Virus record (IMG/VR): IMGVR_UViG_3300005254_000003
Span: 86-64,085 of that record
Length of the DNA: 64,000 bases
DNA from: a virus
Reading direction: 5' to 3' (one strand)
Every line of letters begins with the position of its first letter. Position 1 is the stretch's first letter. Below, one piece after another: positions 9,955 to 42,464 of this stretch. The translations under genes were made by a program, and so were the position numbers. Below the pieces are notes generated by a model, which was not told where the DNA came from, made no database searches, and was given only the letters and a program-made list of their open reading frames with translations.

Positions 9955-10010
9955 GAATAACAATTCAATTCAGCCGACGCAAAAAGCAGCGCTTCTAATT
10001 ATCGGGCACG
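9955..10010 (+). repeat. Truncated attC remnant, end of array
   Basis: GAATAACAATTCAATTCAGCCGACGCAAAAAGCAGCGC resembles the left half of an attC; right half is decayed. Confidence 0.4.
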
Positions 10011-10220
10011 GTAGTTGATATCCGTCCCCTTAGTGGATTTGGGCATTTAAATTTTAAGCCCACTCATGACATAAAACCTCTGCCTGCTCTAATACCAGCT
10101 CGGTTGCTTTGGCCTGTTTGTCCGGTGGATAGCCGTATTTTCTCAAAATACGCTTGATGATCACCCTCATCTGGGCGCGGACGTTCTCCCTGACTGTCCA
10201 GTCGGAAATTCAAACCATTT

Positions 10221-13043
10221 TCAACTATTTTGACTCTGAATCAGAATATCCAATATATCCCCAGGTTTTTTTGTCATGGCACTTCCCCATTGCCCGAAGC
10301 CGCCATGTGTGTTCACAGCTCGAATCCATTCTTCCAGATATCGGCGTTTCACTATATCCTGCTCGGTTTCTTTCCCTTTGGTTTCTATAACAAGGAAAGT
10401 TCCATTTTTTAGTCGAACCAAGAAATCCGGTCGATATTTGCGCACCACACCGCGATATATGTACAGTACCTCAAATCCCAGGTGATCATTCTTTGCCCAA
10501 GCCGCAACTTGCTCGCTGTTATCCAGCGCAAAAGCGTCCGTTGCCTCCCAAGTGCTGTCGTAAACGCATACGTTAATGTGAGATTTTTTTGTGCGTCCAC
10601 ATGGCTTACCGGTGAACCATTTTTGCATCTTCCCTGTTGATCGGATTGGATTATCACGGTTAAAAACAGGAATGCACTTTTCCGAATTTTCTTGCCGTAC
10701 CGCATCCCAGATATGTTGGACCACCCGGGACATGTTAAGAGTAATTATCAGTCGTCGGAGCAGATCATCCTGGAAAAACAAGGTGGGGGATATGACAATC
10801 CGATTCGAGTGGATAAACTTTTCCACGATCTGCACCAATTGTGCGAGCAGGATCTCACGGCTGCCCTTCCATGTGTGTTGCATCTGGTCAAACACATCCC
10901 GCGCCGTTTCAAAAATGATTCGCTGTATGCGAAATTCTTGCGCCAACCTTTCCAGTTCTATCCTCCTGATGCTCGTCACATCAGGCCTGCCTTCGATAAT
11001 AGGTGCCAATTCCGCAATCCGAGCAGTTTGGTTTGCATCCAACTCCAATGGGGGCACCTTAGGCAATTCCAGCGTCAACTTGGTCTCAAATATATAATCA
11101 ATTCGCATTACGTTGGGCCATCGGATTTCAAATTCAGCTTTCATCGGATCTGGTTCGACGGCACTTTTGGGAGTTGTGGGTGGCGGTGGGCCGCCAGTTC
11201 CGCCTTCGTGGGGTAAAAATGTAAAAGGCACCCCGAATATGTTCACATATTCTGGATCGAATAGGTTTGTTTCTGGATTGATTTTGTAAGTGGCCCGTCG
11301 TAGCCCTCGTCCAACCACCTGCTCACACAAAAGTTGGGAGGTAAAGGCTCGAAGCCCCATGATGTGTGTGACGGTCTTGGCGTCCCATCCCTCGCTTAGC
11401 ATGCCTACTGAAATTACCTTCCGAATCTTCTCGCCAGCTTGACCGATGCGCCCAATTGTGTCTACCGTCCTGCGTAGCAATTCTGCCTGTTCGGCCTTGG
11501 TCAACTTGCGTTCTACCGGTGCAGAATCATCTTCGTCCTGCTCTTCACCGTCAGGTGTTTCTAATATGGCTGAAAGATCTTCCTGGGATTCTGCCTGATC
11601 GAGCACTTTCGAATCAATGTGCAGGATCATGTCTGGATTGCACAACTCGTCAATGTGAATGCGCCTTGAGTCAAAGGCATGCTTGACCCTCGCCGCTGTT
11701 TCTGTACGGTTACAGACGCTAATCATAACCGGTGGTGTAGGAGTCCCAGCATCTCGCCACTCCCTCCAAGTCTCACGCCAGTCCATACCCAATAAGTAGT
11801 AGGCGTTGAGGACTAGGTCGGGAAGTGGTTCTTCCGGTTTCGCTTTGCGGTTTAAATTATCTTTGACTTCAACGTCGTTGTAAATGTGGTATAAACGAGA
11901 TTTGTATGTTTTGGCATCCGGTACAGTATCGTCCCGAATTACAACACGCGGGGTTTTAACCAGACCAGATTCAATGGCATCGTTCAATCCAAAGTCGCTA
12001 ATGATCCAACCAAACAGGGCTTCTTCACGGCTTTTTTTACCAGACGGTGTAAAAGGAGTGGCTGAAAAATCATAACAGATCAATATGCTCCGTGAGCGGT
12101 GAAGTCGGTCCAGTCCTCCAATCCAAACTGTGGCTTCCTGGGCACTGTCTTTAAGGTCGCGTTGGCGAAGGTATTTGCCTTCAGCCTCCCAATTAACTCG
12201 CCAGGCATGGTGCGCCTCGTCATTGATAACCAGTAAGTTCCTGGCCTTGGACATCTCACCGAGCACCTCGCGGGTGTATGCCTCGTCACTCTTTACCCCG
12301 CGCTTATCAACGCTGCGTCGCTTTTTGATTTGTTCCGCGCTTTCCCAAGATAGGGCGTGCCAATTCCGGACAAGCACCTTGCCTTGGCGAAGTTTATCCA
12401 GCATGGCTGAAGGAACGATGTTGAACGCCTCGTAATAGTTGTCAGTAGCTGACGGCTCCAAGACCCCGAGGCGGCTTTTCACGGTAAGCCCTGGCGCAAT
12501 AACTAGCACATTTTTCGAAAAGCGAGTGTCTTGTGGATAGGCCACTTTGTTGAGAATATGCCAAGCGATAGCCATCGCCATAACGATGGTTTTACCAGAT
12601 CCTGTAGCCATCTTGCAGCAACGGCGTAAAAATTCACCACCATCCCCAGGGATTTCGATGCCTACTCGTTCGGAAGGGTGTGCTTCGGTCAGCCAAATGA
12701 GTGTTTCAATCGCTTCCAATTGGCAAAAGAAAAATCGGCGTATCTCGAATTCCTCTGGGTCGTTCCAATGCTCGAGCAATCGTTTGGTAATGCTGGAAAC
12801 GCCAGGATGGCCTGCATCGCGCCAAAGTTTTATTCGCGGACGAATCTGATTGACCAACGGAATTTCTACAAAAACTCCTGGATCATCGACGGCTTTGGAA
12901 TCACCCGATGCAATAACGTAACCTGCTGGACGGCGGCCCTCAATGCGATCGAACAGCCTGGATTCACAATCATACCTCCTATGGTGTGTTGGTTCCTCAT
13001 AGGGCGAATTGATAATCAGGCGATCAATGGTTGTCTGAGCCAT
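10221..13043 (-). CDS. res: Type III restriction enzyme, Res subunit (SF2 helicase + nuclease)
   Basis: KMATGSGKT, INDEAHH, FSATP, MLSEGWD, QVVGRGLR, YRPDF...IETKG. Confidence 0.92.
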   Translation of the reverse strand: MAQTTIDRLIINSPYEEPTHHRRYDCESRLFDRIEGRRPAGYVIASGDSKAVDDPGVFVEIPLVNQIRPRIKLWRDAGHPGVSSITKRLLEHWNDPEEFEIRRFFFCQLEAIETLIWLTEAHPSERVGIEIPGDGGEFLRRCCKMATGSGKTIVMAMAIAWHILNKVAYPQDTRFSKNVLVIAPGLTVKSRLGVLEPSATDNYYEAFNIVPSAMLDKLRQGKVLVRNWHALSWESAEQIKKRRSVDKRGVKSDEAYTREVLGEMSKARNLLVINDEAHHAWRVNWEAEGKYLRQRDLKDSAQEATVWIGGLDRLHRSRSILICYDFSATPFTPSGKKSREEALFGWIISDFGLNDAIESGLVKTPRVVIRDDTVPDAKTYKSRLYHIYNDVEVKDNLNRKAKPEEPLPDLVLNAYYLLGMDWRETWREWRDAGTPTPPVMISVCNRTETAARVKHAFDSRRIHIDELCNPDMILHIDSKVLDQAESQEDLSAILETPDGEEQDEDDSAPVERKLTKAEQAELLRRTVDTIGRIGQAGEKIRKVISVGMLSEGWDAKTVTHIMGLRAFTSQLLCEQVVGRGLRRATYKINPETNLFDPEYVNIFGVPFTFLPHEGGTGGPPPPTTPKSAVEPDPMKAEFEIRWPNVMRIDYIFETKLTLELPKVPPLELDANQTARIAELAPIIEGRPDVTSIRRIELERLAQEFRIQRIIFETARDVFDQMQHTWKGSREILLAQLVQIVEKFIHSNRIVISPTLFFQDDLLRRLIITLNMSRVVQHIWDAVRQENSEKCIPVFNRDNPIRSTGKMQKWFTGKPCGRTKKSHINVCVYDSTWEATDAFALDNSEQVAAWAKNDHLGFEVLYIYRGVVRKYRPDFLVRLKNGTFLVIETKGKETEQDIVKRRYLEEWIRAVNTHGGFGQWGSAMTKKPGDILDILIQSQNS

Positions 13044-16029
13044 TATCCACCCCCATTACCTTCAGGCTTTCAATTCCTCGGTCATCAACTATCTTGACAG
13101 CAATGCGGCTGTTTTGGCCTGGTTCAAAGGGTATCGATACTGTACCCCAGTAGGCCTCAATCAATTTTTCGTCGATCTCTGCTTTGAGGTTTTTAGATAG
13201 TTTCGACCAACCATCCTTTGCCCCGGCCATTGGGAAAAAGACTTGGCGAGGGTAGAGGCTTCGGCCATCATAGTCTGTATCCAACATCCAAACCGCAATT
13301 TTTTCTGCACTGCCGGATTCGATCCCTCCGGTTTTGGTATTGTAATAGTCGAATCCATGGACTGAAACGCGTAGTTTGCCTTTATTTTCGCCTTTAGTAA
13401 TTCGTTCCACCTGTATGTCTGGTTGGCCGATCAGCCAGAACGATTCGTTACTGGCCCGCTTCTTTTTGAGGTCATCGGTCAGCAGATCAGCATTCATCTG
13501 TGCCTTTAACAGCGTCACGCCCGGCCAATTAGTTTCATCAATATCTTTGGCTGCCTCGGGGTCAAACTGAAAAGCTGCAAAGACAATGAGTTTGGGTTTC
13601 GGAACGAGGTGTTGCGCCTCCTCGATGGCTTGGGCCACCTGGCGCTGTTCAATAGGAGCATATTCCGGTCCGAAGGAGACTACAATGCGTTGCGGAACTG
13701 AATTTTTGTCTTTGGGATCGGGGCGTGTTTCTCCGTCAGCATTCAACCATCTCAATCCAGGAATTGGCTCCAAACGTACAAACTGAATATATTGGCCACT
13801 TTTACCCCTGATGCCGGAACGCAATAATTCATCGCGCCATTCACCTTGTCGCAGCGTCTCACCGGAACGGGCAATAGAGAGGTCGGCTGCTTGAGGTGGG
13901 TCCTCCAAGATCTCCTCGACTGATTTGACCGCTGGCGCTGGCACAGCCTCCACGGTAAATGGTCCGCTGACGCGTTTCTTCGTGCGATCCACTATCGGCT
14001 GGTCGTAGAGCGTTTCCTGAGGTGCGTGTCGGGCTATCGCTGCGTCAATCTGTTCGCGTTTCATGCCTTCCTTAATGTCAGGGTTGTTGGCGATAGACTT
14101 GAGTGTAACATGTGGCACAGTCTTATATTTGAATCCACTGCCAACGCCTTCTTGCGGGTGGGCCAGCTCGTAGTAGTCAAAAGTCGCTGTCATAAGCCTT
14201 TGCTTGGCAAGGGTCAGCGCCACCCGCGAGGTGTCGCAGGTTATCCAGCGGCGCCCCCATTGTTCGGCAACTAATGCAGTTGTGCCGCTCCCGCAAGTAG
14301 GATCGAAAACGAGGTCACCGGGTTCTGTAGTCATTAGCAAGCATCTTTGAATTACTTTTGATGAGGTTTGAACTACATAAATGGATGAATCGCTAGCAAA
14401 ACCACTTGGCATGGTATCATTCCAAAATGATTTAATTGTAACCAAAGGAAAATCATCTGAATATTGCTTCCTGTGGATATACTTACCTATGTTGATTATC
14501 CTATTCGCATGGACAAGTTTTTCTAAATGTTCTTGATTCGTCCTCCAAAAATAACCTGATGGAGGTAGAAATTTTTTCCCATTAAATAGAAATTCAAATC
14601 GGCTATGTTCAGTCCCACTGTCATTAAATAAACCCTGGGCTTTAAATGGTTTAGATCCGTCTGGAAGAATACCTGTTTCTTTCTCTGTTTTTGTAAGATA
14701 CCTGCATTCTCCATTGGACGTCTCTATCATCGTGAACATCTTTGCGGCTGTCTCTATGGAACGATTTTGGAATAGCTGAAAGTATTTTGTTTGTGATTTG
14801 TTTTTACCATACCAAAGTAAATAATCAGTAGTTATATCTAAATATTGGCTTCCTTTTCCTGTTGTTTTTACAAATATAATTGAATTGATGGAATTTCTAC
14901 TTCCAAAAATTTCATCCATTATTTCTCTAACGTGATGAACATTTTCATCTGATATTTGAACAAAAATGGAACCTTTTTCGTCCAGCAATTCTCTTGCCAA
15001 TAACAAGCGGTCTCTCAAATAGTTTAGGTATGAATGAATACCCAACTCCCAGGTGTCGCGAAAAGCGCGTATTTGTTCTGGTTCCGCGGTTAAATCTTCG
15101 TCTTTACCATCCTTAACGTCGCGATTATTTACAAACGGTTGAAAGTTAGAACCGTACTTGATCCCATAAGGTGGATCGATATAGATCATCTGGACTTTGC
15201 CGGTTAAACCCTCTTTCTCCAGTAGGGAATTCATTACTAAGAGGGAGTCACCTGCGATTAGACGATTGCTCCAGTCATGGGGGTGTTTGTAAAAATCAAT
15301 GGCTTGACGGATTGGCAGGTTTTCCTCTTGTGTCTCGAAAAGCGGAAGCTGTTGAGGTGTATCCCCATTTTTTTTGCGAACCGCCTCAATGATGGTTCGT
15401 GGGTCAATACGCTCATGAACGTGCAAGGAAACTGTCGGCACATCAAATGAGGTGTGTTCGGCTTTGCCCGCCCAAACAAGTTGGGGGTCTAGATGTGGGT
15501 CATATTCGTATGTTTTTTTTGTTCCCAGATCGGGGTCTGTATCGGGTGTAACGAGTCCCGCAGGTGGGTTGTTGATCCTTTTTTTGCCTTTGTGCTCGTA
15601 TGACTCGATAGATTTCTTGGCTTCGCGGTTTTTTATTCGTGCCATTTTTGTCTTCCCGTCATCGCTTTCGGTTTCTGGATAACCCCCGACTGCGTTACTG
15701 TGATGTTTTGGGATTTTGTTCTTTTTATCCAATTTTTTCCTAGTTGGCTGCTCGACGGATAGTTCGGATTCTTTTCTCATGATACGGTCAATGAGAATCT
15801 GTTTGCTAATGGCTCCCGGATTAACACCAAGATCCCAGCAGATTTTTTTGAGTGTGGATATCTTTAAGCCGTCGAGGATTCCCTCAATTTTCACCGATCC
15901 CTTCCTGGATAGGAATGCAGCGATGTCGGCTCTTTTTTCAGAGATCCCTTTGAAACCGAATTTTTCTGATATTTCCAATAGGGTTGACTTATCGAGGCAA
16001 TCAAGGACCTGTCGCTTACGGCTTGCCAT
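13024..16029 (-). CDS. mod: Type III DNA methyltransferase, Mod subunit, with N-terminal extension
   Basis: YIDPPY, DPTCGSGTT, NRLIAGDSL; overlaps the res start; alternative start at 15645. Confidence 0.92.
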   Translation of the reverse strand: MASRKRQVLDCLDKSTLLEISEKFGFKGISEKRADIAAFLSRKGSVKIEGILDGLKISTLKKICWDLGVNPGAISKQILIDRIMRKESELSVEQPTRKKLDKKNKIPKHHSNAVGGYPETESDDGKTKMARIKNREAKKSIESYEHKGKKRINNPPAGLVTPDTDPDLGTKKTYEYDPHLDPQLVWAGKAEHTSFDVPTVSLHVHERIDPRTIIEAVRKKNGDTPQQLPLFETQEENLPIRQAIDFYKHPHDWSNRLIAGDSLLVMNSLLEKEGLTGKVQMIYIDPPYGIKYGSNFQPFVNNRDVKDGKDEDLTAEPEQIRAFRDTWELGIHSYLNYLRDRLLLARELLDEKGSIFVQISDENVHHVREIMDEIFGSRNSINSIIFVKTTGKGSQYLDITTDYLLWYGKNKSQTKYFQLFQNRSIETAAKMFTMIETSNGECRYLTKTEKETGILPDGSKPFKAQGLFNDSGTEHSRFEFLFNGKKFLPPSGYFWRTNQEHLEKLVHANRIINIGKYIHRKQYSDDFPLVTIKSFWNDTMPSGFASDSSIYVVQTSSKVIQRCLLMTTEPGDLVFDPTCGSGTTALVAEQWGRRWITCDTSRVALTLAKQRLMTATFDYYELAHPQEGVGSGFKYKTVPHVTLKSIANNPDIKEGMKREQIDAAIARHAPQETLYDQPIVDRTKKRVSGPFTVEAVPAPAVKSVEEILEDPPQAADLSIARSGETLRQGEWRDELLRSGIRGKSGQYIQFVRLEPIPGLRWLNADGETRPDPKDKNSVPQRIVVSFGPEYAPIEQRQVAQAIEEAQHLVPKPKLIVFAAFQFDPEAAKDIDETNWPGVTLLKAQMNADLLTDDLKKKRASNESFWLIGQPDIQVERITKGENKGKLRVSVHGFDYYNTKTGGIESGSAEKIAVWMLDTDYDGRSLYPRQVFFPMAGAKDGWSKLSKNLKAEIDEKLIEAYWGTVSIPFEPGQNSRIAVKIVDDRGIESLKVMGVDNGSDNH

Positions 16030-16291: not shown

Positions 16292-16507
16292 ATGATTTGC
16301 CCTAAATGCAACCATGAAATGAATCCAGTCAATCTCGAGAGGTCAGTTGTCGAGTGTGTAAAGTGCAGGCATCGTCAGCATATTTATTTGCCGGATCTGG
16401 ATGTCGGGAAAGTCCGGGTTGACCTTAATGAATTGACCATCGGTGAACTACCCTGGGCGGTAAGAGCTTTATTCAATGAGTCTACCGAGGATGAATATGA
16501 CGCTTGA
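16292..16507 (+). CDS. Small Zn-ribbon protein
   Basis: CPKC...CVKC; AAGGA RBS. Confidence 0.6.
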   Translation: MICPKCNHEMNPVNLERSVVECVKCRHRQHIYLPDLDVGKVRVDLNELTIGELPWAVRALFNESTEDEYDA

Positions 16508-18203
16508 ACACCATGAATTTCTTGAATTTATAAATGAGTACGCTGCCGAGGAACTGAAAAAGGCCAAGGGGCAGGAGGTTTCCGGCTCAAAACTTTTGCC
16601 GGCCCAGACAGATGGGCCGCAAACCTTTTTCGTCAATCCTTACGATTTCACCAGTCAATACGGGCTTTGGCGGGAGCGTCGGTCGGCTCTTACCTGGGAT
16701 ACCCTCCGGGTCATGGCGGAAAAGAATCCGATCGTCAGTGCCATCATCAACACCCGCATCCGTCAGATTAGCTCGTTTTCGGCCCCGGTCAGTGAACAGG
16801 AAACAACTGGCAACGACCAGTTGGGGTTCAAGATCGCCCACAAGGATTCAAACAAAAAGCTGACCAGCGGCGAGGAAAAATACGTTCTCGAGCTGGAGAA
16901 TTTCATCACTCATTGCGGATATGTCCAACCGGGGCAGCATCGGGTCGGCCGGGATGGGTTTGACATATGGTTGAAAAAGATCGTCCGCGATTCGTTGACG
17001 TTCGATGCCGCGGTGTCTGAGTTGGTTCCGACCCGGAAAGGGGGGATTCATTCGTTCTATGCGGTGGATGCCGCTACGATCCGGTTGGCGTTGACCCAGC
17101 AAGATGATGATGGGCTGGATGACAAGAAATACGTCCAAGTGCTCAACGGGCAGATTGTTGTCGATTACGAGCCGGATGAGATCATGTACGGCATCCGGAA
17201 TCCCACCACGAACATCAAAAACAATGGGTACGGGATCGCCGAGCTGGAGCAGCTTGTGACGATCGTGACGAACATCTTCAATGCCATGACCCACAACGCC
17301 ATGTTTTTCAAGAACGGCGCTGCAGTGAAAGGCTTGATCAACATCAAGACTGGTAAGGGCCAGACCGGAGCGCCGAATGATCAGCTCGAAGCGTTCAAGC
17401 GGGCGTGGCGGGCGATGGTGACCGGAAGCCAGAATGCCTGGTCAACGCCGATCCTCCAATCCGAGGGGGTGGAATTCGTCAGCATGGGTAACACCAACCG
17501 AGAGATGGAATTCCAGCAGTACCTCGAATTTTTGGTCAAGCTGGCCTGCGCTGTTTATTCCATCGATCCGGCTGAGATCAATTTCTATATGGCGGCTTCC
17601 AGTGGTGGCGGCTCGCCCATGTTTGAGTCCAATCAAGAAGCCAAGCTCAAGATGAGTAAGGACAAAGGGCTTCGTCCGCTTTTGGCTTCGATCGCCCGGT
17701 GGGTCAATTATTACGTCCTTGAGCCAATCACCCCCGATTTTCGGTTCGTGTGGGTTGGCATGGATTCTAAGGATGAAAAAGAGATCGTCGAGCTTCGGAC
17801 GAAAGAAGTTGGCTCATATATGACGGTTGATGAAGCCCGGGCCGAGGCGGGTAAAGAACCGCTGGGGGAGGAAAAGGGCGGCAACATCATTCTTAATCCG
17901 CAATATATCCAATATCTGCAACAGCAGGCAATGGCGGCACAGATGGGCGGCATGGGAGGTGGCGGCGATGAAGAAACCGGAGAGGGCGGAAATACCGATT
18001 TCAGCGATCGTGGTGGCGGCGATCAAGATCTGGAACTGGTTGGCGGGAAGCCGGAGGGAGAGGCCGAGGAAGTGGCCGGAGAGAAGCAAAGCGGAGAGAT
18101 CGCTGCTCAGTCAAAGGCAAAGGGTTCAGCGGATGAAAAAGAGATGAAAAAGAGTCTTTTGCGAACCCGAGAAAAATATCTTCGGATTATGATCGGGGGT
18201 TGA
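16476..18203 (+). CDS. Portal protein (Twort/SPO1-like); real start probably 16491 or 16497
   Basis: IINTRIRQI, KIVRDSLTFDA, YGIAELEQL, FFKNGAAVKG, EMEFQQYLEFL...IDPAEINF. Confidence 0.92.
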   Translation: MSLPRMNMTLEHHEFLEFINEYAAEELKKAKGQEVSGSKLLPAQTDGPQTFFVNPYDFTSQYGLWRERRSALTWDTLRVMAEKNPIVSAIINTRIRQISSFSAPVSEQETTGNDQLGFKIAHKDSNKKLTSGEEKYVLELENFITHCGYVQPGQHRVGRDGFDIWLKKIVRDSLTFDAAVSELVPTRKGGIHSFYAVDAATIRLALTQQDDDGLDDKKYVQVLNGQIVVDYEPDEIMYGIRNPTTNIKNNGYGIAELEQLVTIVTNIFNAMTHNAMFFKNGAAVKGLINIKTGKGQTGAPNDQLEAFKRAWRAMVTGSQNAWSTPILQSEGVEFVSMGNTNREMEFQQYLEFLVKLACAVYSIDPAEINFYMAASSGGGSPMFESNQEAKLKMSKDKGLRPLLASIARWVNYYVLEPITPDFRFVWVGMDSKDEKEIVELRTKEVGSYMTVDEARAEAGKEPLGEEKGGNIILNPQYIQYLQQQAMAAQMGGMGGGGDEETGEGGNTDFSDRGGGDQDLELVGGKPEGEAEEVAGEKQSGEIAAQSKAKGSADEKEMKKSLLRTREKYLRIMIGG

Positions 18204-18717: not shown

Positions 18718-19122
18718 ATGACACCTATTGTGGAACTCGTTCGGCTTGAAACCGGGAAACAGGGCACTTTCGGTGCCTTGTTGATTTGTAAAAAGGTTTT
18801 CTGCTTCACCCTGGAGCCGCCGGCCCGATTGAATAAGAAGCGGGTCAGCAGCATTCCGCCAAGCCAGTACATTTGTTGGCGGCACCAATCACCCCGATTC
18901 GGTGAAACTTTCCAGATTCTCGAGGTGCCGGATCGGTCGGAGATCCTTTTCCATTCCGGAAATGTCGTCACCAACACGGAGGGGTGCATTCTTCTTGGTT
19001 CGACAATCGGGAAGCTCAAGGGCGACCGAGCAGTGCTTAACAGCGGGGACACGTTTAAGGCGTTCATGAAAGCGGTTGAAGGGTTTCAGGCCTTTCACCT
19101 GACCATCCGTGAAGTCTATTAG
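18718..19122 (+). CDS. DUF5675-family protein, candidate endolysin
   Basis: TLEPP...IPPSQY...RSEILFHSGN...TEGCILLG. Confidence 0.75.
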   Translation: MTPIVELVRLETGKQGTFGALLICKKVFCFTLEPPARLNKKRVSSIPPSQYICWRHQSPRFGETFQILEVPDRSEILFHSGNVVTNTEGCILLGSTIGKLKGDRAVLNSGDTFKAFMKAVEGFQAFHLTIREVY

Positions 19123-25213: not shown

Positions 25214-25238
25214 GTTGACATTCGGAGGGATAGTCTCG

Positions 25239-25823
25239 ATGCTGATCATCGACCTTGAAAAAGCGGCCTATAAACTCCAGGGCCGAACGGACTTCCAGGG
25301 TTTAAACATTTCGATTGAAAACCGAAAGGGGTCGGTTCGCCGCGGGGTGGATAAAGATGGTCACGAATGGCAGACCAAGATGAAACATGCCTACGGGTAT
25401 ATCCGCCTTTCTGATGAGGTTCGCCGTAAGGGGGCCGACGGTGACCATGTCGATTGCTTTATCGGGCCTTCCCGCGGGTCTGAGCGGGTTTTCGTGGTGC
25501 ATTTGAACCGGGCAGACAATGAAAAGTTCGATGAGGATAAAGTGTTTCTCGGTTTCGACTCCAAGGATGAGGCCAAGGCTGCTTTTGATGCCAATTACGA
25601 CAAGGTGGGACAACGGCTCTACGGCGGCATGACTGAGATGGACATGTCTGCATTCAAGCAGCGCCTGGCGGCACGATCCAAGGGGATGATAAAATCGCTC
25701 CGGTTCGAGGGCAAGGATTCTCGCCCGGATTCGGGGTTGAAGAAATCTTTGGCTGCGGATTTGATGCACGTTTTGATGGTACCTGGCCGCCCTATTTTTG
25801 CGTCTAAACGCGAAAGTAATTGA
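25239..25823 (+). CDS. InPase (inorganic pyrophosphatase-like) domain protein of phage polyvalent-protein type
   Basis: FQGLNISIENRKGSVR...YGYI...GADGDHVDCFIGP...FDEDKVFLGF...AFDANY; GGAGG RBS. Confidence 0.8.
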   Translation: MLIIDLEKAAYKLQGRTDFQGLNISIENRKGSVRRGVDKDGHEWQTKMKHAYGYIRLSDEVRRKGADGDHVDCFIGPSRGSERVFVVHLNRADNEKFDEDKVFLGFDSKDEAKAAFDANYDKVGQRLYGGMTEMDMSAFKQRLAARSKGMIKSLRFEGKDSRPDSGLKKSLAADLMHVLMVPGRPIFASKRESN

Positions 25824-25827
25824 TTAC
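25816..25827. promoter_or_regulatory. Palindrome 4
   Basis: GTAATTGATTAC. Confidence 0.8.
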
Positions 25828-25843
25828 GTTGATGAGGGATAAG

Positions 25844-28756
25844 ATGCAGCATTTCATCTACGTCGATTTGGTAAAAGCACATGTCAAAGCTCATTTCCGT
25901 CGTGATCCGAAAACCGGCAAACTGCTGTTCATCAAGGATTACGATTCCAAAGTTCATGGCAAGGCAGATCTTGAGTTTCACCAGGGCCATCAGGTTAGGG
26001 TGAACAACCCCCGGAGCAAATTCCACGGCCAGGTGATGACTGTCCGCCATTACTCCGACAAGTACAATGTCGTGCGTTTAAATATCCCCGGGAAAAACCA
26101 TACCGCCGATTTTGAGCCCCATCAGTTGGAGCATCATACGCCGGTAGCCGGCAGCGCCTCGCCGGCGACACCTCCGCCGGCTAAAGCCATGACGTTGGAT
26201 GATGCCAAGACTGCGTTGGGGTTGGCTGGGATCTCTTTTGCTTCTGCGGAAATGGCCCACGAAAGAAAGCGGGTCGAATCGATGGATGCAGCCAAGCTCA
26301 AGGCCAGGATCTCCAAGATCAAAGAGAGCCAGAAGCTCTACAATTTCATGCGGGCGTTGATGGAGTGGGGTACCGCCGATAAGCGGGAAGTCGCCAAAGA
26401 CATCGAAAAGGAATTGATCAAGCGAGCGGAGGATAAGAAGGCTGCTGCGCCGGCAGCTAAACCGGTAACCAAGCCGCCAGCCACCCCGCCGGCGGTTGCA
26501 AAAATCACTTTCGATCCTGGGGATAGGGTCCGAATCAGTAATCCCCGCAGCAAGCATCACGACAAGGAGGGTGTGGTCACCTCCTTTTCCGACAAGTACA
26601 ACGTGGTCCGATTGAAACTCGATGACGGTTCCTACACGGATGTGAGCCCGGCTTCTGCAGTTAACCTGTCGGGGAACAACCAGTCAGCTCCGGCGGCACA
26701 ACCAGCTCCTGAACCGGAAAAAACTCCCGAACCTCCGAAGGCTCCCGAACCTCCGAAGACTGCGGCGGATTTTCCGCATGACAAAGCGGCTGCCTGGAAA
26801 TACGCCAGCAACGATCAACGGTCCTTGGCCCGGGTCACGGGGATGGTCCCGCTGGACGACAAAGCGGCCGAATACATCAAGAAAAATCTTCAGAAAATCA
26901 CTGCGAAGGCTGGGACGACGAATGTACCTTCCTCCGGTTACAGAGCGAGCAATGACAGGTGGTATGGGGTCAAGACCCGAGGTGGGTACACCATCCCGAA
27001 ATATGTGAATGAGTATTTGAATTCGGATTGGCGTACCACAGGCGATATCATGACCGCTTTCCGTCTTGATGTTAAAGGCGACAAGCCTATTTCCGATACG
27101 GCGATTGGTTTCATCCAACGCGGAAAAGAGGACTGGGAAAAGGCTGGCTACGATTATGTTAAAATCGAGGAAGATCTCAAGGAACTCGGCAAGCTCATCG
27201 AGGAAGCGGTTTCGAAAGAAACAGCCAAACAGCAACATTCATTGCTTGCGGTAGATTTTATGCTTGAGAATCTCGCCCATTCTTTGCGGATAAAAAATAC
27301 TGGGCCTGATTCGCATCAGGTCAAGCCGTCTGAGTTCATGAAAACAATGATGGAAAAATTTACTCCGGATATGAAAGTCTCCGAGTTCTTGGACCACTAT
27401 ACCAAGTTGAATGCTGATGATCTGCTTGATCTAAAATCGGTCAAGGAGCTTTTTCACGCTTATGCCGGCCCCGGTTTTCAAGGCAATCCGGAACATCTCA
27501 CCATGAGGGATGTAACCGATGGCTTGACTCGTTTTATGGGGAGAGCGCGCAAGATCGCTTGGACTGGGAGCCCTGCTGATGATATTGAAATGCGGGGTTT
27601 TCTCAATGTGATGAAAGAACGTAGCAGTGCAGTTCGATATCTGCATGAAAAATTTGGTGTCGAACTGGCGACTATTATCAAAGATAGGGGCTTTTCCGGG
27701 GATAACGATTCAATGACTTCCTTTATTGCATCCGGCGGTGTTGGAGCCCCACCTTTTGCCAGATGGTCCAATTTCCGGGTTATAGAGCCGGGAATGGTTA
27801 CTTACCCTCAGAAAAAAATATCAGACGAAATTCTCAAGAGAATCAAAAACAGCGACATCTTGCGAGATCAGTGGGCGGCGAATTATGTCACTGTCGTGGG
27901 ACAGGCTAACTTGACGAAAAATTATAACCGGCCGTTTAAAAGCCGGGTTTTTCCGAGAGGTTTGATTCAAGATCAAGGCCCGCGAGCGGTTGGGATGAAA
28001 ATTGCCCGACAAAGCGGCAAAGTGGATGACATCGCCGATAGTATGTCCAAGCGGTATTGGAAAGAGGTCGAGAAACAGAAAAAGCTCAAGGCATCGGGGC
28101 AAAAAGGAGCCGACCCGGCGGATCGAAGTGACCCACCGCCGGATTACTTGGGCTGTACGTTCAAATCCGTGGATGACAAGACGGCCAATTTTCTCCGAAA
28201 AAAGATTGAAAAGGCCTGGGATAAAGATGTGCATGGCGGGTTCTTTTTCAAAATCCATGGGATCTATCAAATCGGCGGCATGGATCATCACGGTAAATAC
28301 AAAAAGATTGAGAAAGATCGTGACAACGTCATGTATGGCTACCACTCGACCAATTTCCAAGCAGCCGCATCGATTGTGAAGTCGTCTTATCGGGCTGGCG
28401 GCGGGATGCTCGGCGACGGGGTTTATGTTACGGATGTGAGTTCCAAAAGCGCACAATATCTTTTGGGCAACTGCAACGTAACCCGGCGTCCGGGGACTCG
28501 GGGCGTCTTTCTGATGAACAAGGTTTCTTTGGGCAAAGTCCATGACAAGAGCTATGGGGCTCCGAATTCCAATCCCCACGAAACTCCCAGTCTCGACAAA
28601 GCGGATACGGTTTTTGCTCCCAAAAACAAGATGGTTCCGGGTTATTCGACAAAGGTGTTGAACGATGAACATGCGGTCAAGGATGCCAATGCCGTCATTC
28701 CGATGTATTGGGTGGATTTGGAATTAACGGATCGTTCCGGCAAAACTAACCCGTAA
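25844..28756 (+). CDS. Multidomain virion-cargo-like protein: targeting motif + 2 KOW/SH3-like domains + C-terminal PARP-like ADP-ribosyltransferase
   Basis: YGYHST / MLGDGVYVTDVSSKSAQY / KVSLGKV / NDEHAV align to the PARP H-Y-E catalytic motifs; GAGGGA RBS before ATG 25844. Confidence 0.85.
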   Translation: MQHFIYVDLVKAHVKAHFRRDPKTGKLLFIKDYDSKVHGKADLEFHQGHQVRVNNPRSKFHGQVMTVRHYSDKYNVVRLNIPGKNHTADFEPHQLEHHTPVAGSASPATPPPAKAMTLDDAKTALGLAGISFASAEMAHERKRVESMDAAKLKARISKIKESQKLYNFMRALMEWGTADKREVAKDIEKELIKRAEDKKAAAPAAKPVTKPPATPPAVAKITFDPGDRVRISNPRSKHHDKEGVVTSFSDKYNVVRLKLDDGSYTDVSPASAVNLSGNNQSAPAAQPAPEPEKTPEPPKAPEPPKTAADFPHDKAAAWKYASNDQRSLARVTGMVPLDDKAAEYIKKNLQKITAKAGTTNVPSSGYRASNDRWYGVKTRGGYTIPKYVNEYLNSDWRTTGDIMTAFRLDVKGDKPISDTAIGFIQRGKEDWEKAGYDYVKIEEDLKELGKLIEEAVSKETAKQQHSLLAVDFMLENLAHSLRIKNTGPDSHQVKPSEFMKTMMEKFTPDMKVSEFLDHYTKLNADDLLDLKSVKELFHAYAGPGFQGNPEHLTMRDVTDGLTRFMGRARKIAWTGSPADDIEMRGFLNVMKERSSAVRYLHEKFGVELATIIKDRGFSGDNDSMTSFIASGGVGAPPFARWSNFRVIEPGMVTYPQKKISDEILKRIKNSDILRDQWAANYVTVVGQANLTKNYNRPFKSRVFPRGLIQDQGPRAVGMKIARQSGKVDDIADSMSKRYWKEVEKQKKLKASGQKGADPADRSDPPPDYLGCTFKSVDDKTANFLRKKIEKAWDKDVHGGFFFKIHGIYQIGGMDHHGKYKKIEKDRDNVMYGYHSTNFQAAASIVKSSYRAGGGMLGDGVYVTDVSSKSAQYLLGNCNVTRRPGTRGVFLMNKVSLGKVHDKSYGAPNSNPHETPSLDKADTVFAPKNKMVPGYSTKVLNDEHAVKDANAVIPMYWVDLELTDRSGKTNP

Positions 28757-28769: not shown

Positions 28770-29066
28770 ATGATGCTCGTTAATCATTCGAATTATTTCG
28801 ATTACAATGGCCAGATTTACTGTGAAAAACTCATGGATGTGGTCCGGGCCGATGAGCAGCATTACGAGAACTATTGCCTGAATTGCCGTTTTTTCAATGG
28901 GCACCTGTTCGGCGAGGGGGTGGAGTGTCTTTACGAGGACTCCACGGTCAAGGACGGTGAGGAAGTGATCGGTGTAACCGATCCTTTCGAGTACCTGGAT
29001 AAGCGTCGCAAAGCACGTTCTATTGAAAGAGAACGCAAGGCAACCGATTTCACCGTAAAGCGGTAG
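28770..29066 (+). CDS. Small Cys-containing hypothetical protein
   Basis: C...CLNC...C; directly downstream of the ART gene. Confidence 0.55.
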   Translation: MMLVNHSNYFDYNGQIYCEKLMDVVRADEQHYENYCLNCRFFNGHLFGEGVECLYEDSTVKDGEEVIGVTDPFEYLDKRRKARSIERERKATDFTVKR

Positions 29067-29075: not shown

Positions 29076-29771
29076 ATGTCGCACGTCAAGCAATACACCC
29101 GGGTCAGCCACGGCAAAATGCAGACCGTTCGCGCCTATGATGATAAGCGTTCGCGGTCTGGAAAAAAGGTTTCACACCATGTCGTGACGATTGACAAGGG
29201 GATGGAAAAGATCAGGGAAACGGTTACGGAGCTGCTGCGGACGGATGCGGGCGTCAAGGAGCTGGAGGCCAAGGTCAAGTCCGGCGGCTTTTTAAAGTCT
29301 TTGCCCGAGGTGGCGGCGTTGTATGGGGTCGAACAAGGCGTCCACCATCCCTATCGGGATACCTTCGATCATACGATCCAGGTCATAAAACACTTGCCAG
29401 CGGATGCCAGCGATAACGTCCGCTGGGCGGCGTTGCTGCATGATATCGGCAAATCAACGACCCAACAGGTACATCCGGATCGGGGCATCGTGTTCGATGG
29501 CCATGAATACGCTGGCTACAAGATGGTGGGCAAGGTTCTCGATCGCCTGGGGTTCTCCAAGGATGATCAGGCAGAGATCAAGCATCTGGTCCTTCATCAT
29601 GGCAACCTGCGGACCAAATTCCTTCGATCGGACGAAAGCGAGGCTCGGGAATTTATGGCCCACAAGCATTTTGAGACTTTGCTGGCGTTGCATCGAGCGG
29701 ATGTGAAAGCGTCCGGCCGGGATCCGAAAGAGGTGCTCGATGCCATCGATGAATTAAGGCAAAAAGATTAG
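29076..29771 (+). CDS. HD-domain phosphohydrolase (CCA-enzyme-type HD) with N-terminal HVK targeting motif
   Basis: HH...DTFDHT...WAALLHDIGK...GHEYAG...HH; N-terminus SHVKQYTRVSHGKMQTVRAYDD. Confidence 0.85.
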   Translation: MSHVKQYTRVSHGKMQTVRAYDDKRSRSGKKVSHHVVTIDKGMEKIRETVTELLRTDAGVKELEAKVKSGGFLKSLPEVAALYGVEQGVHHPYRDTFDHTIQVIKHLPADASDNVRWAALLHDIGKSTTQQVHPDRGIVFDGHEYAGYKMVGKVLDRLGFSKDDQAEIKHLVLHHGNLRTKFLRSDESEAREFMAHKHFETLLALHRADVKASGRDPKEVLDAIDELRQKD

Positions 29772-34732: not shown

Positions 34733-35635
34733 ATGATGGAAAACCAAACGCCAATTGGGTTCCACGAGGACGGGTCATTCCGGTTCCATGTTCCCATCGA
34801 TCTGAAAAAAGGGGACGATGGCAAGACATGGATTGAAGGGGTCGCCAGCGTTGAAAGAGAAGACATCGCCGGCGAAACGGTTATCTTGGCCGGGATGGAT
34901 CTGTCCTATCTTTTGAGCCGCGGCTATTTCAACGACAATCATGCCAAGACCACCGATGCAAAGGTCGGCGTCCCCACCGAAGCGAAAGTTACGCCCAATG
35001 GGTTGCAGGTCAAAGGGTATCTGTTCGACACACCCCGGGCCAAAGGCATTGTTGAGTTGGCCGAGGCCCTGCAGAAATCCGGCAGCGAGCGCCGCCTGGG
35101 TTTCAGTGTTGAAGGAAAGACCCTCAAGCGTGACGGCAAGATCATCAAACAGTGTTGGGTCAAGGATATTGCCATCACCGCCGAGCCGGTCAACCCCTAC
35201 ACCTACCTCGATGTCATCAAAAGCATTTCCCATGATATCGCCGTCAATGGTTATGTCGATGATCTGGAGGAAAAGGCCCAGGCCCCGAATATAGTAGAGC
35301 CTGAGCCGTTGGGCTACTGGGACCGCCTGGAACAGATTTTTTCCAGGTGCTTGTCAAAGATCTTTGGGGGCAAAGCTCAATCCGATTTGGAAAAGATGAT
35401 GATGGCCGGAACCCAGCGGCCCGTCGAGGATGGGGGATCAGCCCTTCGGAAAGAGGCAGTCGAGGAAGGGGTGACGAATCTGGACATCCCGCAAGGTGAA
35501 ACGAAAGAGCTAACCGAGGATGAAGCCGTCCAATATCTGATGCGACGTGGTTATTCCGAGGAAAACGCAAAACGGGTCGCAAATATGATTTTCAATACCG
35601 AAAATCGGAAGTTCTTGGCAACTGTCGGCCTATAA
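34733..35635 (+). CDS. Prohead maturation protease
   Basis: IEGVASVEREDIAGE...GYFNDNH...LGFSVEG...IAITAEPVNP. Confidence 0.9.
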   Translation: MMENQTPIGFHEDGSFRFHVPIDLKKGDDGKTWIEGVASVEREDIAGETVILAGMDLSYLLSRGYFNDNHAKTTDAKVGVPTEAKVTPNGLQVKGYLFDTPRAKGIVELAEALQKSGSERRLGFSVEGKTLKRDGKIIKQCWVKDIAITAEPVNPYTYLDVIKSISHDIAVNGYVDDLEEKAQAPNIVEPEPLGYWDRLEQIFSRCLSKIFGGKAQSDLEKMMMAGTQRPVEDGGSALRKEAVEEGVTNLDIPQGETKELTEDEAVQYLMRRGYSEENAKRVANMIFNTENRKFLATVGL

Positions 35636-35652
35636 CACAAGGAGGACAAATC

Positions 35653-36441
35653 ATGACGGAACAAAAAACAACGATGCCGGAAAAAGCTTTCCTGGAATCG
35701 CTTGACGCTCTGGAGAATTTGGCAAAGGGGATGGTCCCTGTTGCGGATGATCTGGATGCGGCTGCCGGTGAGGATCTGGAAAAAAGTCAGTCGGCCGACG
35801 GCCAGGGGGAAGCTGCTGCTGACGAAGCACTGGTCAAGGGGGATGATGGCGAGGACGATGATGACCAGGACAAAGACGAAGGCGATGAAGACACCGAAAA
35901 AGCCTTGTCCGGGGATGCCCTCTCCTTTGCCGAGGAAGCCGCTGCCGGTTCCGAAAATATCCGAAAAGCCATTGAAGTGAGTGACTTCCTGGCGGATCTG
36001 GTGGACCGGGTTGGCGATGCCATCGATGGCATTCGTCAAAACCTCGATACCCGCGTCGAAACCATCGAGAAAAGTCTGTTGACGGTATGTGAGGCCAATC
36101 AGTCCGTCGTCCAGGCTGTGGCCGAAACCCTGCGGAAGTCTTTCCAGGCAGTTTCGGAAAAGACGGACCAGCAAGCTGAAACCCTGCGGAAGTCGCTGGA
36201 TATCCTCAACGATGAGTTGAGCAGGACTCCTGCCCGGGCTCCCAAGGCCAAAGTCTCCGTGCTGGAAAAAGGTTTCAACGACGAAGAAAAGGGGATCGAA
36301 ATGTCGAAAGCCGACATCCTCAAGTCTTTGTCCGACATGTTCGAGCGTGGTGAACCGGGTGTGACTTCGCTGGATGTGATTCGATTCGAGTCCAGCGGCG
36401 TGTTGCCGCCCCACATTCAGAAGAAGTTTCAAGGCCGGTAG
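35653..36441 (+). CDS. Acidic scaffold-like protein
   Basis: Lies between protease and MCP; acidic coiled coil with many xxKS/KA/KG motifs. Confidence 0.7.
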   Translation: MTEQKTTMPEKAFLESLDALENLAKGMVPVADDLDAAAGEDLEKSQSADGQGEAAADEALVKGDDGEDDDDQDKDEGDEDTEKALSGDALSFAEEAAAGSENIRKAIEVSDFLADLVDRVGDAIDGIRQNLDTRVETIEKSLLTVCEANQSVVQAVAETLRKSFQAVSEKTDQQAETLRKSLDILNDELSRTPARAPKAKVSVLEKGFNDEEKGIEMSKADILKSLSDMFERGEPGVTSLDVIRFESSGVLPPHIQKKFQGR

Positions 36442-36461
36442 TTTTTTCATCTTAAGTCGAA

Positions 36462-36473
36462 GTAATCAATTAC
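36462..36473. promoter_or_regulatory. Palindrome 8 (before MCP)
   Basis: GTAATCAATTAC. Confidence 0.8.
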
Positions 36474-36498
36474 TTCTAATCTGTAGGAGGAAATTCAA

Positions 36499-37932
36499 AT
36501 GAACGATATCATCACACTGGCTCAATACGAAGATATTCACACCGCCGGTTTCACCAGCATGCGCGAAGTTGAGGAACTCAACAAAGCCCTGGAAGCCGGC
36601 CATGACCGTCCGGTGTCCACCGGCGGCGGCGCTTTGCGCGTGGAGTCCCTGGAAGCCAGCCTCAAAGTGCTGACCCATCAGGCCAAACACTGTGCTTTCT
36701 GGCAGCGCGTTCCCAAACTACCCGCTTACTCGACCGTCGAGGAATACAATCAGTTGACGGCTGTTGGCGATGAGTCCGGAGCCTTCATTCCTGAAGGTAC
36801 GCTGCCCGATACGGTGGATTCCACCTACAACCGCGCAACCAGCCTGGTGAAGTTCCTGGGTACGACCCGCAGCGTTTCTCACCCCATGACCCTGGTCCGC
36901 ACCAACATCGGTGATGTGATGGCCCAGGAAAATGCCAACGGCATCCTGTGGATTCTCAAAAACCTGGAATGGGGCCTATTCAACGGCGACGCCGACATGT
37001 GTTACCTGGGTGCGGCTACCGATTCGACCCACCGTGAAGGTGTGGAGTTCAGCGGTCTGGAAAAACAGATCAACGCCGCCAACGTGGTCGATCTGAAGGG
37101 CGCTCCTCTGAGTGAGGGTGCGTTCTCCTATGCGGCTCAGTTGGTCGCCAGCAATTACGGTGTTCCGTCGGATTGTTTCTTGAGCTTCGCCGCTCATCAG
37201 GCATTCTGCGACACCATGCTGCCCAAAGAGCGCGTACCGCTGCCCACCCAAGGCGGTGGCTATACCGTCGGTGCCAATATCCCCGATGTGAACACCCCCT
37301 TCGGCAAGGTCAACCTCAACCCCGATGTGTTCCTGAACTCGGGCAAAACTCCTCCGTCCGCTGCGACCAGCACCAATGCTCCGACGGCTCCTGCGACCTT
37401 TGCCGCCGCAGCTATGGCTGGCACCGATGGTGTGTGGGCGACCCATGGTGGCGCCGGCACCTACAATTACGCCGTGACCGCCGTGAACCGCTACGGTGAG
37501 TCGGCTGCCGTGAATGCTGCTGCTGCCGTGACCGTGGCTGCTGCCGATCTCGGAAAGCACGTTCCCTTCACCATCACCAACGCCGCCGCCGTGTCCGTGG
37601 CGCCCGAGTATTTCAACATCTACAAGACCCTGCCGGGTGGCACCACGAAATACCTGGTCGGCCGTATCCGTGCCAACAGCGTGGCCAACGCCGGAACGAC
37701 CACCTGGGACGATACCGGCCTGTGGATGGCTGGCACGACCAAGGCTTTTGTGGGTGAGCTGAGCCCGCAAGTCATCTCCGTCAAACAGCTTGCTCCGCTG
37801 ATGAAAATGGATCTGGCGACCTTGGCTCCGGCCTACCGTTGGATGATCCTCTGCTACCTGACCTTCATCCTGTACGCCCCCAAGAAATGGGTGCAGTTCA
37901 TCAATGTCGGTGGCAGCCAACTGGCGGTGTAA
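36499..37932 (+). CDS. Major capsid protein (A511/Twort-like)
   Basis: LNKALEAG...GGALRVESLE, STVEEYNQ, ILWILKNLEWGLFNGD, LAPLMKMDLA; strong RBS AGGAGG. Confidence 0.92.
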   Translation: MNDIITLAQYEDIHTAGFTSMREVEELNKALEAGHDRPVSTGGGALRVESLEASLKVLTHQAKHCAFWQRVPKLPAYSTVEEYNQLTAVGDESGAFIPEGTLPDTVDSTYNRATSLVKFLGTTRSVSHPMTLVRTNIGDVMAQENANGILWILKNLEWGLFNGDADMCYLGAATDSTHREGVEFSGLEKQINAANVVDLKGAPLSEGAFSYAAQLVASNYGVPSDCFLSFAAHQAFCDTMLPKERVPLPTQGGGYTVGANIPDVNTPFGKVNLNPDVFLNSGKTPPSAATSTNAPTAPATFAAAAMAGTDGVWATHGGAGTYNYAVTAVNRYGESAAVNAAAAVTVAAADLGKHVPFTITNAAAVSVAPEYFNIYKTLPGGTTKYLVGRIRANSVANAGTTTWDDTGLWMAGTTKAFVGELSPQVISVKQLAPLMKMDLATLAPAYRWMILCYLTFILYAPKKWVQFINVGGSQLAV

Positions 37933-40874: not shown

Positions 40875-42464
40875 ATGGGTCTTTTTGATGAAGCATTGGC
40901 GAAAAGCCTTGAAACAGGGGATACAAAAGATCTTGCCCAGGTGGTGTTTCCCGGGGCCGAAAGTTTGGAAAAGGCCCATATCAAAGCCCATTTCCGGTTG
41001 AATCCCAAAACCGGGAAACGAGAATTCATCAAAGACTACGATGATGCCCGGCACAAAGATGAAGTACATGTCTCGTTTCACAAAGGGCACAAGGTCAAAG
41101 TGAACAATCCGAAATCCAAGCACCATGGCAAGGTGATGGAGGTGACTGGTTACTCGGAAAAATACGATGTCGTGCGGGGTAAAATTGATGGCGAGAAAAA
41201 CTCTGTCGATTTTCATGCAGACCACTTGGAGCATCATGGCGACAAGGCTGCTGCCCCTGATGCAAAAGAGGACAAAGAGCCGACCGGGAAAATCTCCGCC
41301 GAGCTGAAAGCGAAAATCGATAGCCTTTCTCCGACTGAAAAATTCACTGTCGTCAATGATTACTTGGGCCTTCGGGTTCATGCGGGTGATAAAAATTTCC
41401 GCGCCGACAAAGATGGTGGGACCGATCGGTTCCTGGCCCATGTCAATGTCAGAGATTTTCCAATCAAAAAGATCGAAGAAGCGGTCGATCGTATGTTGGA
41501 CCAAAAAGATCGGGGAAAAGTTGAACCACCGAAGCGGGATTATTCCAAAGGGGTTACGGTTGTCGTTACCAAGGTGGAGAGACTGCCTGGTGGCCAAGGC
41601 GACCGTGTTGCTTTCAGCTATGACGATGGCACTCCAGTAGAAGATAAAATCATGGCGGGTTGGTCCCACCGACATGGGCCCAGCAGCAGTGATCCCAATC
41701 CGGCTGCTATCAGGACCATGAGCACCTACAAGGTAGGGGAAAAATACAAGCTCACCCGCGACAATCGTGGAATGTGGGCCGAACCCCATCACACGAACAA
41801 GGTGGCCGAGGGTAAAGCCCCGACAGATACAGGGCCCAAGAAAGACCTTGATGTTAAAACTACTCCCGAAAAATTGAAATATGACAAATTCGGTGCCCAT
41901 GTGAAATCGGGCGTGAGCAGCGTTTCGGATGCCGAAAAGATTCTGATGGAGCACGGTTTCACCTGGGACAAGAGCGACAAGTCTGGATCGCTTGGAGGCG
42001 CCATCTATGAAAAAGACGGCAAGGGGGTTGCCCACTTCGATGCAGCGGGCAAAACCTTGACGATCTATGAGCCCAAGGAAAAATCGGATTCCAAGCCTGA
42101 CCAATCAAAGGCAACAGGTGCCCAAAAACAATGGGGGACGGAAAAGGAAATTGCGGCGCCGGATGCTGGCATCGGTCCAAAGAGTTTCGAGACGCGGTTT
42201 CCCCACATCAAAGAGTTTTTTGAACAGGCTGAGAATACCCTTGAACTCGGGAAGTTGAAAAAACAGGCCGCCAAATTCGCCGCGAGTAACCCCGAGGGGT
42301 GGAAGTGGGGGCCGATTGACCACTTTCACAAGGAACACGCTGAGACTTTGAGGCAGCTTGGTCGATCCGGTCACAAACAAACGGCCGCAGCAGAACACCG
42401 GATGGATACTTTACTTCGAACCCGGGATTCATCCGGGCGGGCAACGGCGAGAAGGCGTTCATAA
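40875..42464 (+). CDS. Virion-cargo-like protein with the same N-terminal module as the ART protein
   Basis: LEKAHIKAHFRLNPKTGKREFIKDYDD + HKVKVNNPKSKHHG...YSEKYDVVR. Confidence 0.8.
   Translation: MGLFDEALAKSLETGDTKDLAQVVFPGAESLEKAHIKAHFRLNPKTGKREFIKDYDDARHKDEVHVSFHKGHKVKVNNPKSKHHGKVMEVTGYSEKYDVVRGKIDGEKNSVDFHADHLEHHGDKAAAPDAKEDKEPTGKISAELKAKIDSLSPTEKFTVVNDYLGLRVHAGDKNFRADKDGGTDRFLAHVNVRDFPIKKIEEAVDRMLDQKDRGKVEPPKRDYSKGVTVVVTKVERLPGGQGDRVAFSYDDGTPVEDKIMAGWSHRHGPSSSDPNPAAIRTMSTYKVGEKYKLTRDNRGMWAEPHHTNKVAEGKAPTDTGPKKDLDVKTTPEKLKYDKFGAHVKSGVSSVSDAEKILMEHGFTWDKSDKSGSLGGAIYEKDGKGVAHFDAAGKTLTIYEPKEKSDSKPDQSKATGAQKQWGTEKEIAAPDAGIGPKSFETRFPHIKEFFEQAENTLELGKLKKQAAKFAASNPEGWKWGPIDHFHKEHAETLRQLGRSGHKQTAAAEHRMDTLLRTRDSSGRATARRRS

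Follow-up and report, generated by a model that had tools for sequence, protein, structure and literature searches.

A PARP-family ADP-ribosyltransferase domain in a head-module protein of a Desulfobacterales-associated myovirus, a candidate capsid-delivered effector

To our knowledge, the phage ADP-ribosyltransferases (ARTs) with known biochemistry, namely T4 Alt, ModA and ModB, all belong to the R-S-E clade. PARP-like phage ARTs have been described computationally: Otto et al. (2005) placed one on a large protein of phage Aeh1 (PMC1266365), and Iyer et al. (2022) found PART/PARP to be one of the commonest ART families of viruses, enriched in myoviruses, with phage ARTs often lying beside head genes and predicted to be packaged in the head (PMC9503650). 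InPase domains are found in phage polyvalent proteins, for which packaging in the virion has likewise been predicted (Iyer et al. 2017, PMC5512222). In bacteria, the PARPs of Herpetosiphon aurantiacus and Clostridioides difficile CD160 have been shown to perform poly-ADP-ribosylation in vitro (PMC8120803), while our literature search found no bench assay of any PARP-clade phage enzyme. Here, we describe a protein of the latter kind, encoded among the head genes in a stretch of 64,000 nucleotides of viral DNA (positions 86 to 64,085 of the IMG/VR record IMGVR_UViG_3300005254_000003), hereafter called the window. Its C-terminal domain is, by sequence comparison and structure modelling, a PARP-family ART with the H-Y-E triad intact. 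With moderate confidence, we favour the reading that the protein is a head-packaged, injected ADP-ribosylating effector, that is, a strategy analogous to that of T4 Alt but carried out with an enzyme of the PARP clade.

The domain had been recognised in an earlier reading of the DNA sequence alone (the original prediction), which considered it remarkable for a phage since the well-known phage ARTs are of the R-S-E type. This novelty argument was overstated, as PARP-like phage ARTs are present in the literature (PMC1266365, PMC9503650) and the homologue in Bacillus phage YungSlug (QKE56383.1, 869 aa) is already annotated as 'PARP polymerase'. What is particular to this case is the Desulfobacterales-associated clade, the conserved block of genes that encode InPase, PARP and HD proteins, and a shared N-terminal module made of a basic motif and a KOW barrel.

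The identification of the domain itself was confirmed. The region named in the original prediction (28150-28740) is in frame and lies in the last fifth of an open reading frame (ORF) of 978 codons, window 25820-28756 (+). Residues are numbered below from the first codon of this frame, TTG 25820. The Pfam family PF00644 matches residues 802-920 with an E-value (E) of 1.7e-9 and 37.9 bits (curated cut-off 26.7), and gives 41.4 bits in a six-frame family search of the record. When the single sequence is compared to the Protein Data Bank (PDB) by phmmer, human PARP1 is ranked first (E 2e-5), and a profile built from 50 family sequences reaches chicken and human PARP1 at E 3.6e-20. The same profile also matches PARP2 (1e-18) and, with E between 1e-16 and 1e-17, PARP3 and the tankyrases. 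In the profile alignment the family segments YHGT, GdGvY...SSKSaqY and ndEw are paired with WHGS, GKGIY...VSKSANY and YNEY of PARP1, respectively. The fold is in agreement with this. An AlphaFold (AF2) model of residues 760-978 has a mean predicted local distance difference test score (pLDDT) of 91, and Foldseek matches the model of the ART domain to PARP1 at E 2e-14 with a template modelling (TM) score of 0.70. VIA-align, applied to the full-length model, superimposes the ART domain on tankyrase 1 with Z 18.5 and a root-mean-square deviation of 2.5 A over 179 residues, and on PARP1 with Z 18.4. No R-S-E active site and no Alt/VIP2-type sequence was found; the triad is H-Y-E, and the sequence and fold matches are all to PARPs.

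Turning to the catalytic residues, an exhaustive search for relatives gave 164 clusters at E <= 1e-3, the best 150 of which were aligned. The triad is nearly invariant, as 146 of 147 sequences have H842, 147 of 148 have Y869 and all 149 of 149 have E950, and G865, G867, S875, K876, Y880 and G905 are as fixed as these three. The three triad codons begin exactly where the original prediction had put them, and the acidic catalytic residue is indeed retained. In the profile alignment, H842, Y869 and E950 pair with PARP1 H862, Y896 and E988, and S875-K876 and Y880, which follow Y869, are equivalent to PARP1 S904-K903/Y907. The single-sequence phmmer alignment instead paired PARP1 H862 with Y839/G840, a shift of two residues, but this was rejected as the family, profile and YungSlug (YYHGT) alignments overrule it. 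The near invariance of the histidine, the two tyrosines, the glutamate and the S-K pair across the 150 relatives indicates that catalysis is under selection. Because E950 and the PARP1/tankyrase-like S-S-K-S-x-Q-Y segment are retained, transferase chemistry is likely and poly-ADP-ribosylation is possible. For the same reason, the depletion of NAD+, which the original prediction had listed beside the modification of host proteins or DNA, is the least likely of the proposed functions.

It is nevertheless conceivable that the domain is catalytically dead and that the head protein keeps it for structural or binding purposes. The glycine of the family H-G-T is a serine here; glycine is found at this position in 139 of 147 relatives and serine or alanine in the other 8. 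Furthermore, one orthologue is interrupted by an insertion sequence element. In a Desulfosarcina metagenome-assembled genome (MAG; L005:10001-15404), a transposase (PF21804) splits the gene inside the ART domain, so that what remains is an N-terminal ORF of 826 aa and a PARP fragment of 143 aa, and this means that the ART can be lost. However, the same serine occurs in a relative with 58% identity, and the glycine in PARP1 makes its contact through the backbone. Together with the conservation of the triad and the nicotinamide-pocket residues across the 150 relatives, this makes a dead domain the least probable of the alternatives considered in this work, and very improbable in absolute terms.

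As to the extent of the gene, ATG 25844 is the likely start, with a GAGGG ribosome-binding site upstream of it at the right distance, and the identical protein on a 149-kb contig in a public collection is called from this codon, with 970 aa. ATG 25844 corresponds to M9 in the numbering used here. The full-length model is numbered from M9, so that 8 has to be added to its residue numbers, and the ART domain is 771-962 in the model's own numbering. A palindrome, GTAATTGATTAC, is located at window 25816-25827, where it overlaps the stop codon of the InPase gene just 5' of the start of the PARP gene. The coordinates of all features are collected in Table 1.

Table 1. Features of the PARP-carrying gene, its protein and the surrounding window (residues numbered from TTG 25820)
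Feature	Window position	Strand	Basis or remark
PARP-carrying head-module protein gene	25844..28756	+	970 aa from likely start
Conserved N-terminal motif L-x-K-A-H-V-K-A-H-F-R-R-D-P-K-T-G-K-L-x-F-I-K-D-Y-D	25868..25945	+	aa 17-42
First KOW/SH3-like beta-barrel	25970..26134	+	aa 51-105; model strands pLDDT ~90
Helical bundle between two Pro/Ala-rich linkers	26195..26446	+	aa 126-209; full-length model
Second KOW/SH3-like barrel, internal repeat of the first	26525..26665	+	aa 236-282
Large, mostly alpha-helical domain	26741..28093	+	aa 308-758; full-length model
PARP-family ADP-ribosyltransferase domain	28154..28729	+	aa 779-970; Pfam, phmmer, profile, fold
H842, triad histidine	28343..28345	+	H-S-T here, H-G-T in family
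Y869, triad tyrosine, in G-x-G-V-Y	28424..28426	+	family and profile alignments
E950, catalytic glutamate (N-D-E-H)	28667..28669	+	family and profile alignments
Portal protein, upstream limit of head module	16476..18203	+	phrog_12 E 1e-55
InPase-domain protein, polyvalent-protein type pyrophosphatase, upstream neighbour	25215..25823	+	PF18823 E 5e-42
98-aa ORF directly downstream of the PARP gene (~95 aa in relatives)	28770-29066	+	
HD-domain phosphohydrolase, downstream neighbour	29076..29771	+	PF01966 E 2e-10; synteny
Prohead protease, scaffold-like protein and major capsid protein, downstream limit	34733..37932	+	phrog_1028 E 5e-47, phrog_752 E 3e-112
Second motif carrier, 529 aa, neck/tail region	40875..42464	+	motif HMM E 1.3e-16
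Trypsin-like peptidase	1-726		
SEC-C motif protein	2689-4308		
Ankyrin-repeat protein	4482-5099		
GmrSD-N protein	5745-7469		
ResIII helicase-endonuclease, beside the methyltransferase	10221-13043	-	
Large DNA methyltransferase	13024-16029	-	

In the full-length AlphaFold model (mean pLDDT 86), a disordered leader precedes a beta-hairpin, which corresponds to the strongly conserved basic motif. The hairpin is followed by two barrels, the first KOW/SH3-like and the second KOW-like, with a four-helix segment between them, then by a helical domain of ~450 residues and, finally, by the ART domain. Pro/Ala-rich linkers of low model confidence separate the parts. The region of the second barrel has a weak Pfam match to NdhS (SH3-like), and one orthologue matches Pfam KOW with 40.5 bits (cut-off 22.3). 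For the helical domain (aa 330-760), no family was obtained from PHROG, Pfam or the ESM Atlas, in the last case with TM < 0.3 and a poor Atlas model. We have also considered whether it could be a PARP1-type regulatory domain, but there is no PARP_reg match in Pfam, no convincing alignment to the helical regulatory domain of PARP1 was obtained, and the full-length model has only ~10 more residues aligned to the PARP1 CAT domain than the ART on its own. The domain opens with a motif of ~40 residues (aa 330-370, window 26807-26930) that is common to 56 PARP carriers, including Herelleviridae proteins whose sequence upstream of the ART is otherwise unrelated, and that may have a regulatory role. 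The first helix of this motif sits, in the full-length model, where the helical domain of PARP1 begins.

The protein shares the fold and the H-Y-E triad with PARP1-3 and the tankyrases. It also has the same nicotinamide/acceptor motif, G-x-G-[IV]-Y...S-S-K-S-x-x-Y, and the beta-alpha part with which the ART domain starts is present as well. However, the identity is ~20%, the D-loop and the acceptor-side loops are shorter, H-S-T replaces H-G-[ST], the context is a phage head module, and the Pfam scan found no WGR, zinc-finger, BRCT, ankyrin/SAM or detectable PARP_reg domain. The missing WGR and zinc-finger domains indicate that the protein is not a DNA-break-activated enzyme of the PARP1 type. 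The two bacterial PARPs mentioned above share with it the prokaryotic association and a PF00644 domain with H-Y-E, but they are DNA-activated cellular enzymes that have a WGR and a regulatory domain and are paired with PARG, and none of these features was found here.

Another alternative is that nucleic acid, and not protein, is the substrate of the ART, for example DNA ends or RNA 5'-phosphates, which PARP1-3 and PARP10/11/15 can modify in vitro. Such an enzyme might cap the ends of the incoming phage genome or damage host nucleic acids. That the nearest relatives in both sequence and fold are PARP1/2/3 and tankyrase speaks for it, as do the basic N-terminal motif and the KOW barrels, which often bind nucleic acid or ribosome/RNAP; reviews on DNA/RNA ADP-ribosylation by PARPs are also available. 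However, the Pfam scan found no DNA-sensing WGR or zinc-finger domains, and no feature in the data is specific to a nucleic-acid substrate. We regard this alternative as unlikely.

As regards the N-terminal part of the protein, all close orthologues (the orthologues range from 30 to 88% identity) start with a leader of 8-35 residues that is variable and is modelled with low confidence. After it come L-x-K-A, a nearly identical basic motif of 25 residues and a KOW barrel, and the motif was found in each of the 17 orthologues and other carriers that were aligned. The same module heads proteins in which the PARP payload is replaced by a SNF2/strawberry-notch-type helicase or by DUF7717, and the motif has 52% identity with a stretch inside an InPase-SNF2 (DarB-like) polyvalent protein. 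In one protein the module is internal and directly follows a fused InPase domain, whereas here InPase and module are on adjacent genes. One module with interchangeable payloads in a head operon is the pattern expected of a capsid-loading or processing tag. The motif is a candidate capsid-targeting or processing module, and the sharing of the motif and KOW barrel fits a delivery module.

A hidden Markov model (HMM) of the motif detects a second carrier in the window, the 529-aa ORF in the neck/tail region, which belongs to no Pfam family and may be a second cargo or a virion protein that uses the same module. The HD protein was also considered as a carrier as its N-terminus is similar by eye, but it was rejected since the motif HMM is below significance. 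With the polyvalent and MuF-fused effectors (Iyer et al. 2017; ART-PolyVal/HYD2 ARTs), the protein has in common the multi-domain logic of head effectors, the InPase neighbour and the module that is also found on InPase-SNF2 proteins. It differs in that its ART is of the PARP family instead of the H-Y-D type of ART-PolyVal, and in that the effectors are encoded by adjacent genes and are not fused.

We now turn our attention to the genomic setting. According to PHROG and Pfam, the PARP gene lies between the genes for the portal and those for the prohead protease (34733) and the major capsid protein (36499), which bears out the head-region placement of the original prediction. Further downstream follow the tail sheath at 44050 and the baseplate genes at 51666-57549, and the phage is, by its gene content, a myovirus. 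The gene for a 719-aa protein follows that of the HD phosphohydrolase, so that the conserved block consists of InPase, PARP protein, small ORF, HD hydrolase and a ~700-aa protein. A locus search for syntenic relatives, made with an alignment of 11 closer sequences, gave the order portal, DUF5675, ..., ~820-aa, ..., InPase, PARP protein, ~95 aa, HD, ~690 aa, ..., capsid, with the InPase gene in the same position. The block is kept in a Desulfobacterium chromosome of 5.8 Mb (5.77 Mb), in which the PARP protein is only 30% identical, and also in the Desulfosarcina MAG. In the window, a DUF5675 protein is encoded just after the portal (18718-19122, +), at the same place as in the Desulfobacterium relative. 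The occurrence of relatives of the entire head module in Desulfobacterales chromosomes and MAGs suggests a host in this group, and suggests also an integrated state for some, at least, of these myovirus-like elements of ~150 kb.

The prophage-like nature of these relatives in bacterial chromosomes, and the fact that some ART-fold proteins are NADases (PMC9503650), would be in line with an NAD+-consuming toxin, or with an exclusion or abortive-infection factor expressed from a prophage. Several observations disfavour this. The protein is 970 aa long and embedded in a structural operon, and it keeps the catalytic glutamate and the acceptor-site lysine as true transferases do. No immunity or antitoxin candidate is adjacent to it, and no macro, ARH or PARG gene was detected in the 66-kb record, a weak negative as the PARG control matched nowhere and the record is a fragment. 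PADLOC gave no match for the PARP protein, the InPase protein or the 719-aa, 339-aa and 529-aa proteins, and only generic Cas3-HD-like matches for the HD protein. A toxin or exclusion factor of this type is accordingly quite unlikely, and in our ranking it is placed below the nucleic-acid-directed enzyme and above the dead domain.

The alternative that we rank highest is that of an active enzyme that is not packaged but made late with the head genes and at work inside the producing cell. There it could possibly modify host or phage proteins during assembly, or switch off host functions, or defences that recognise the portal or the terminase. The position in the head module shows only co-expression, and the same alternative has been raised by Iyer et al. 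(2022) for head-linked ARTs (PMC9503650). The presence of the N-terminal module on unrelated payloads and the company of InPase and DarB-like proteins are, on the other hand, better explained by a common delivery route. We therefore consider non-packaged action to be a real but clearly secondary possibility.

In the favoured mechanism, that of a packaged and injected effector, the protein would be made late, alongside the head proteins, and the N-terminal module would take it into the prohead, where the prohead protease would perhaps remove the leader. It would then leave the capsid together with the DNA and enter the next host, where the ART domain would, at an early stage of infection, consume host NAD+ for the ADP-ribosylation of host macromolecules. 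The life history proposed here is that of T4 Alt, which is synthesised late, incorporated into the head and ejected with the DNA, and which modifies host proteins early (PMC5512222, PMC9503650). However, Alt is a mono-ART of the R-S-E clade, on another branch of the ARTs and with no sequence similarity to the present protein, and its packaging is proven and it is processed by the protease, whereas packaging is only predicted here. Injection is a reasonable expectation from the gene context, and we infer likewise the packaging, processing, ejection and enzymatic activity, as well as the mode (mono- or poly-ADP-ribosylation) and the target.

It is important to point out what weighs against this mechanism. 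Packaging has neither proteomic nor experimental support in any family member, and no protease site has been demonstrated. Pfam and PHROG found no MuF domain or portal fusion in the protein, nor zincin MPTase, LPDs or ART-PolyVal. No terminase was seen in the window or the record, the latter being a fragment of 66 kb that CheckV estimates to be 41% complete. The H-S-T replacement and the transposase-split Desulfosarcina gene, both described above, belong to the same side of the balance.

Among cultured phages the family is rare. At E <= 1e-5, tblastn matched the ART-bearing protein in only 5 of 50,697 phage records, those of the Bacillus phages YungSlug and Nachito, the Lysinibacillus phages LysYB1 and LysYB2 and, weakly, Klebsiella phage 05F01, while metagenomes contain ~160 sequence clusters of the PARP-carrying family. 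The homologue in YungSlug and LysYB1 has ~870 aa, matches PF00644 with 54 bits and is encoded immediately upstream of the portal. A structure search among viral proteins added two further sources, Pseudomonas phage pf16 and Aeromonas phage phiAS5, with proteins of 1200-1300 aa that have a PARP domain at their end. All these large phage proteins (YungSlug, Nachito, LysYB1/2, Aeh1/phiAS5 and pf16; 870-1300 aa) carry the ART at the extreme C-terminus, as here, with 31-36% identity in the ART domain and the ~40-aa motif upstream of it in common. The N-terminal halves are unrelated, the motif and KOW barrel being confined to the Desulfobacterales-associated clade, and the gene adjoins the portal in the Herelleviridae members, whereas here it is downstream of the portal, in the InPase/HD block.

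Two further observations concern other parts of the window. Residues 218-247 in the C-terminal part of the protease of the prohead (35380-35480) are similar to residues 26-55 in the N-terminal arm of the major capsid protein (36570-36665), both on the + strand, with a BLASTP E of 5e-4 within the set of head genes, and the common segment may be a maturation or docking segment. The region 5' of the portal, window 1-16029, looks like defence or accessory cargo (Table 1).

Finally, a more far-reaching version of the favoured mechanism can be formulated, in which the protein is a true poly-ADP-ribose polymerase, or an enzyme that ADP-ribosylates DNA or RNA ends, delivered from the capsid into bacteria on an interchangeable and so far undescribed motif-plus-KOW module that also carries helicase, pyrophosphatase and other payloads. 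We hold this to be rather doubtful. If true, it would represent the first injected PARP-type chemistry in the conflict between phages and bacteria, together with a portable tag for loading of the head. The family keeps all residues used by PARP1 and the tankyrases, including the lysine and the glutamate that are linked to chain elongation. It could thus show whether PARP-type, possibly poly-ADP-ribosylation serves as a first-strike weapon on bacteria, with the cultured phages of Bacillus and Lysinibacillus as a tractable system for testing this. As for the N-terminal module, its sharing suggests that there is a general way in which cargo may be loaded into these capsids.

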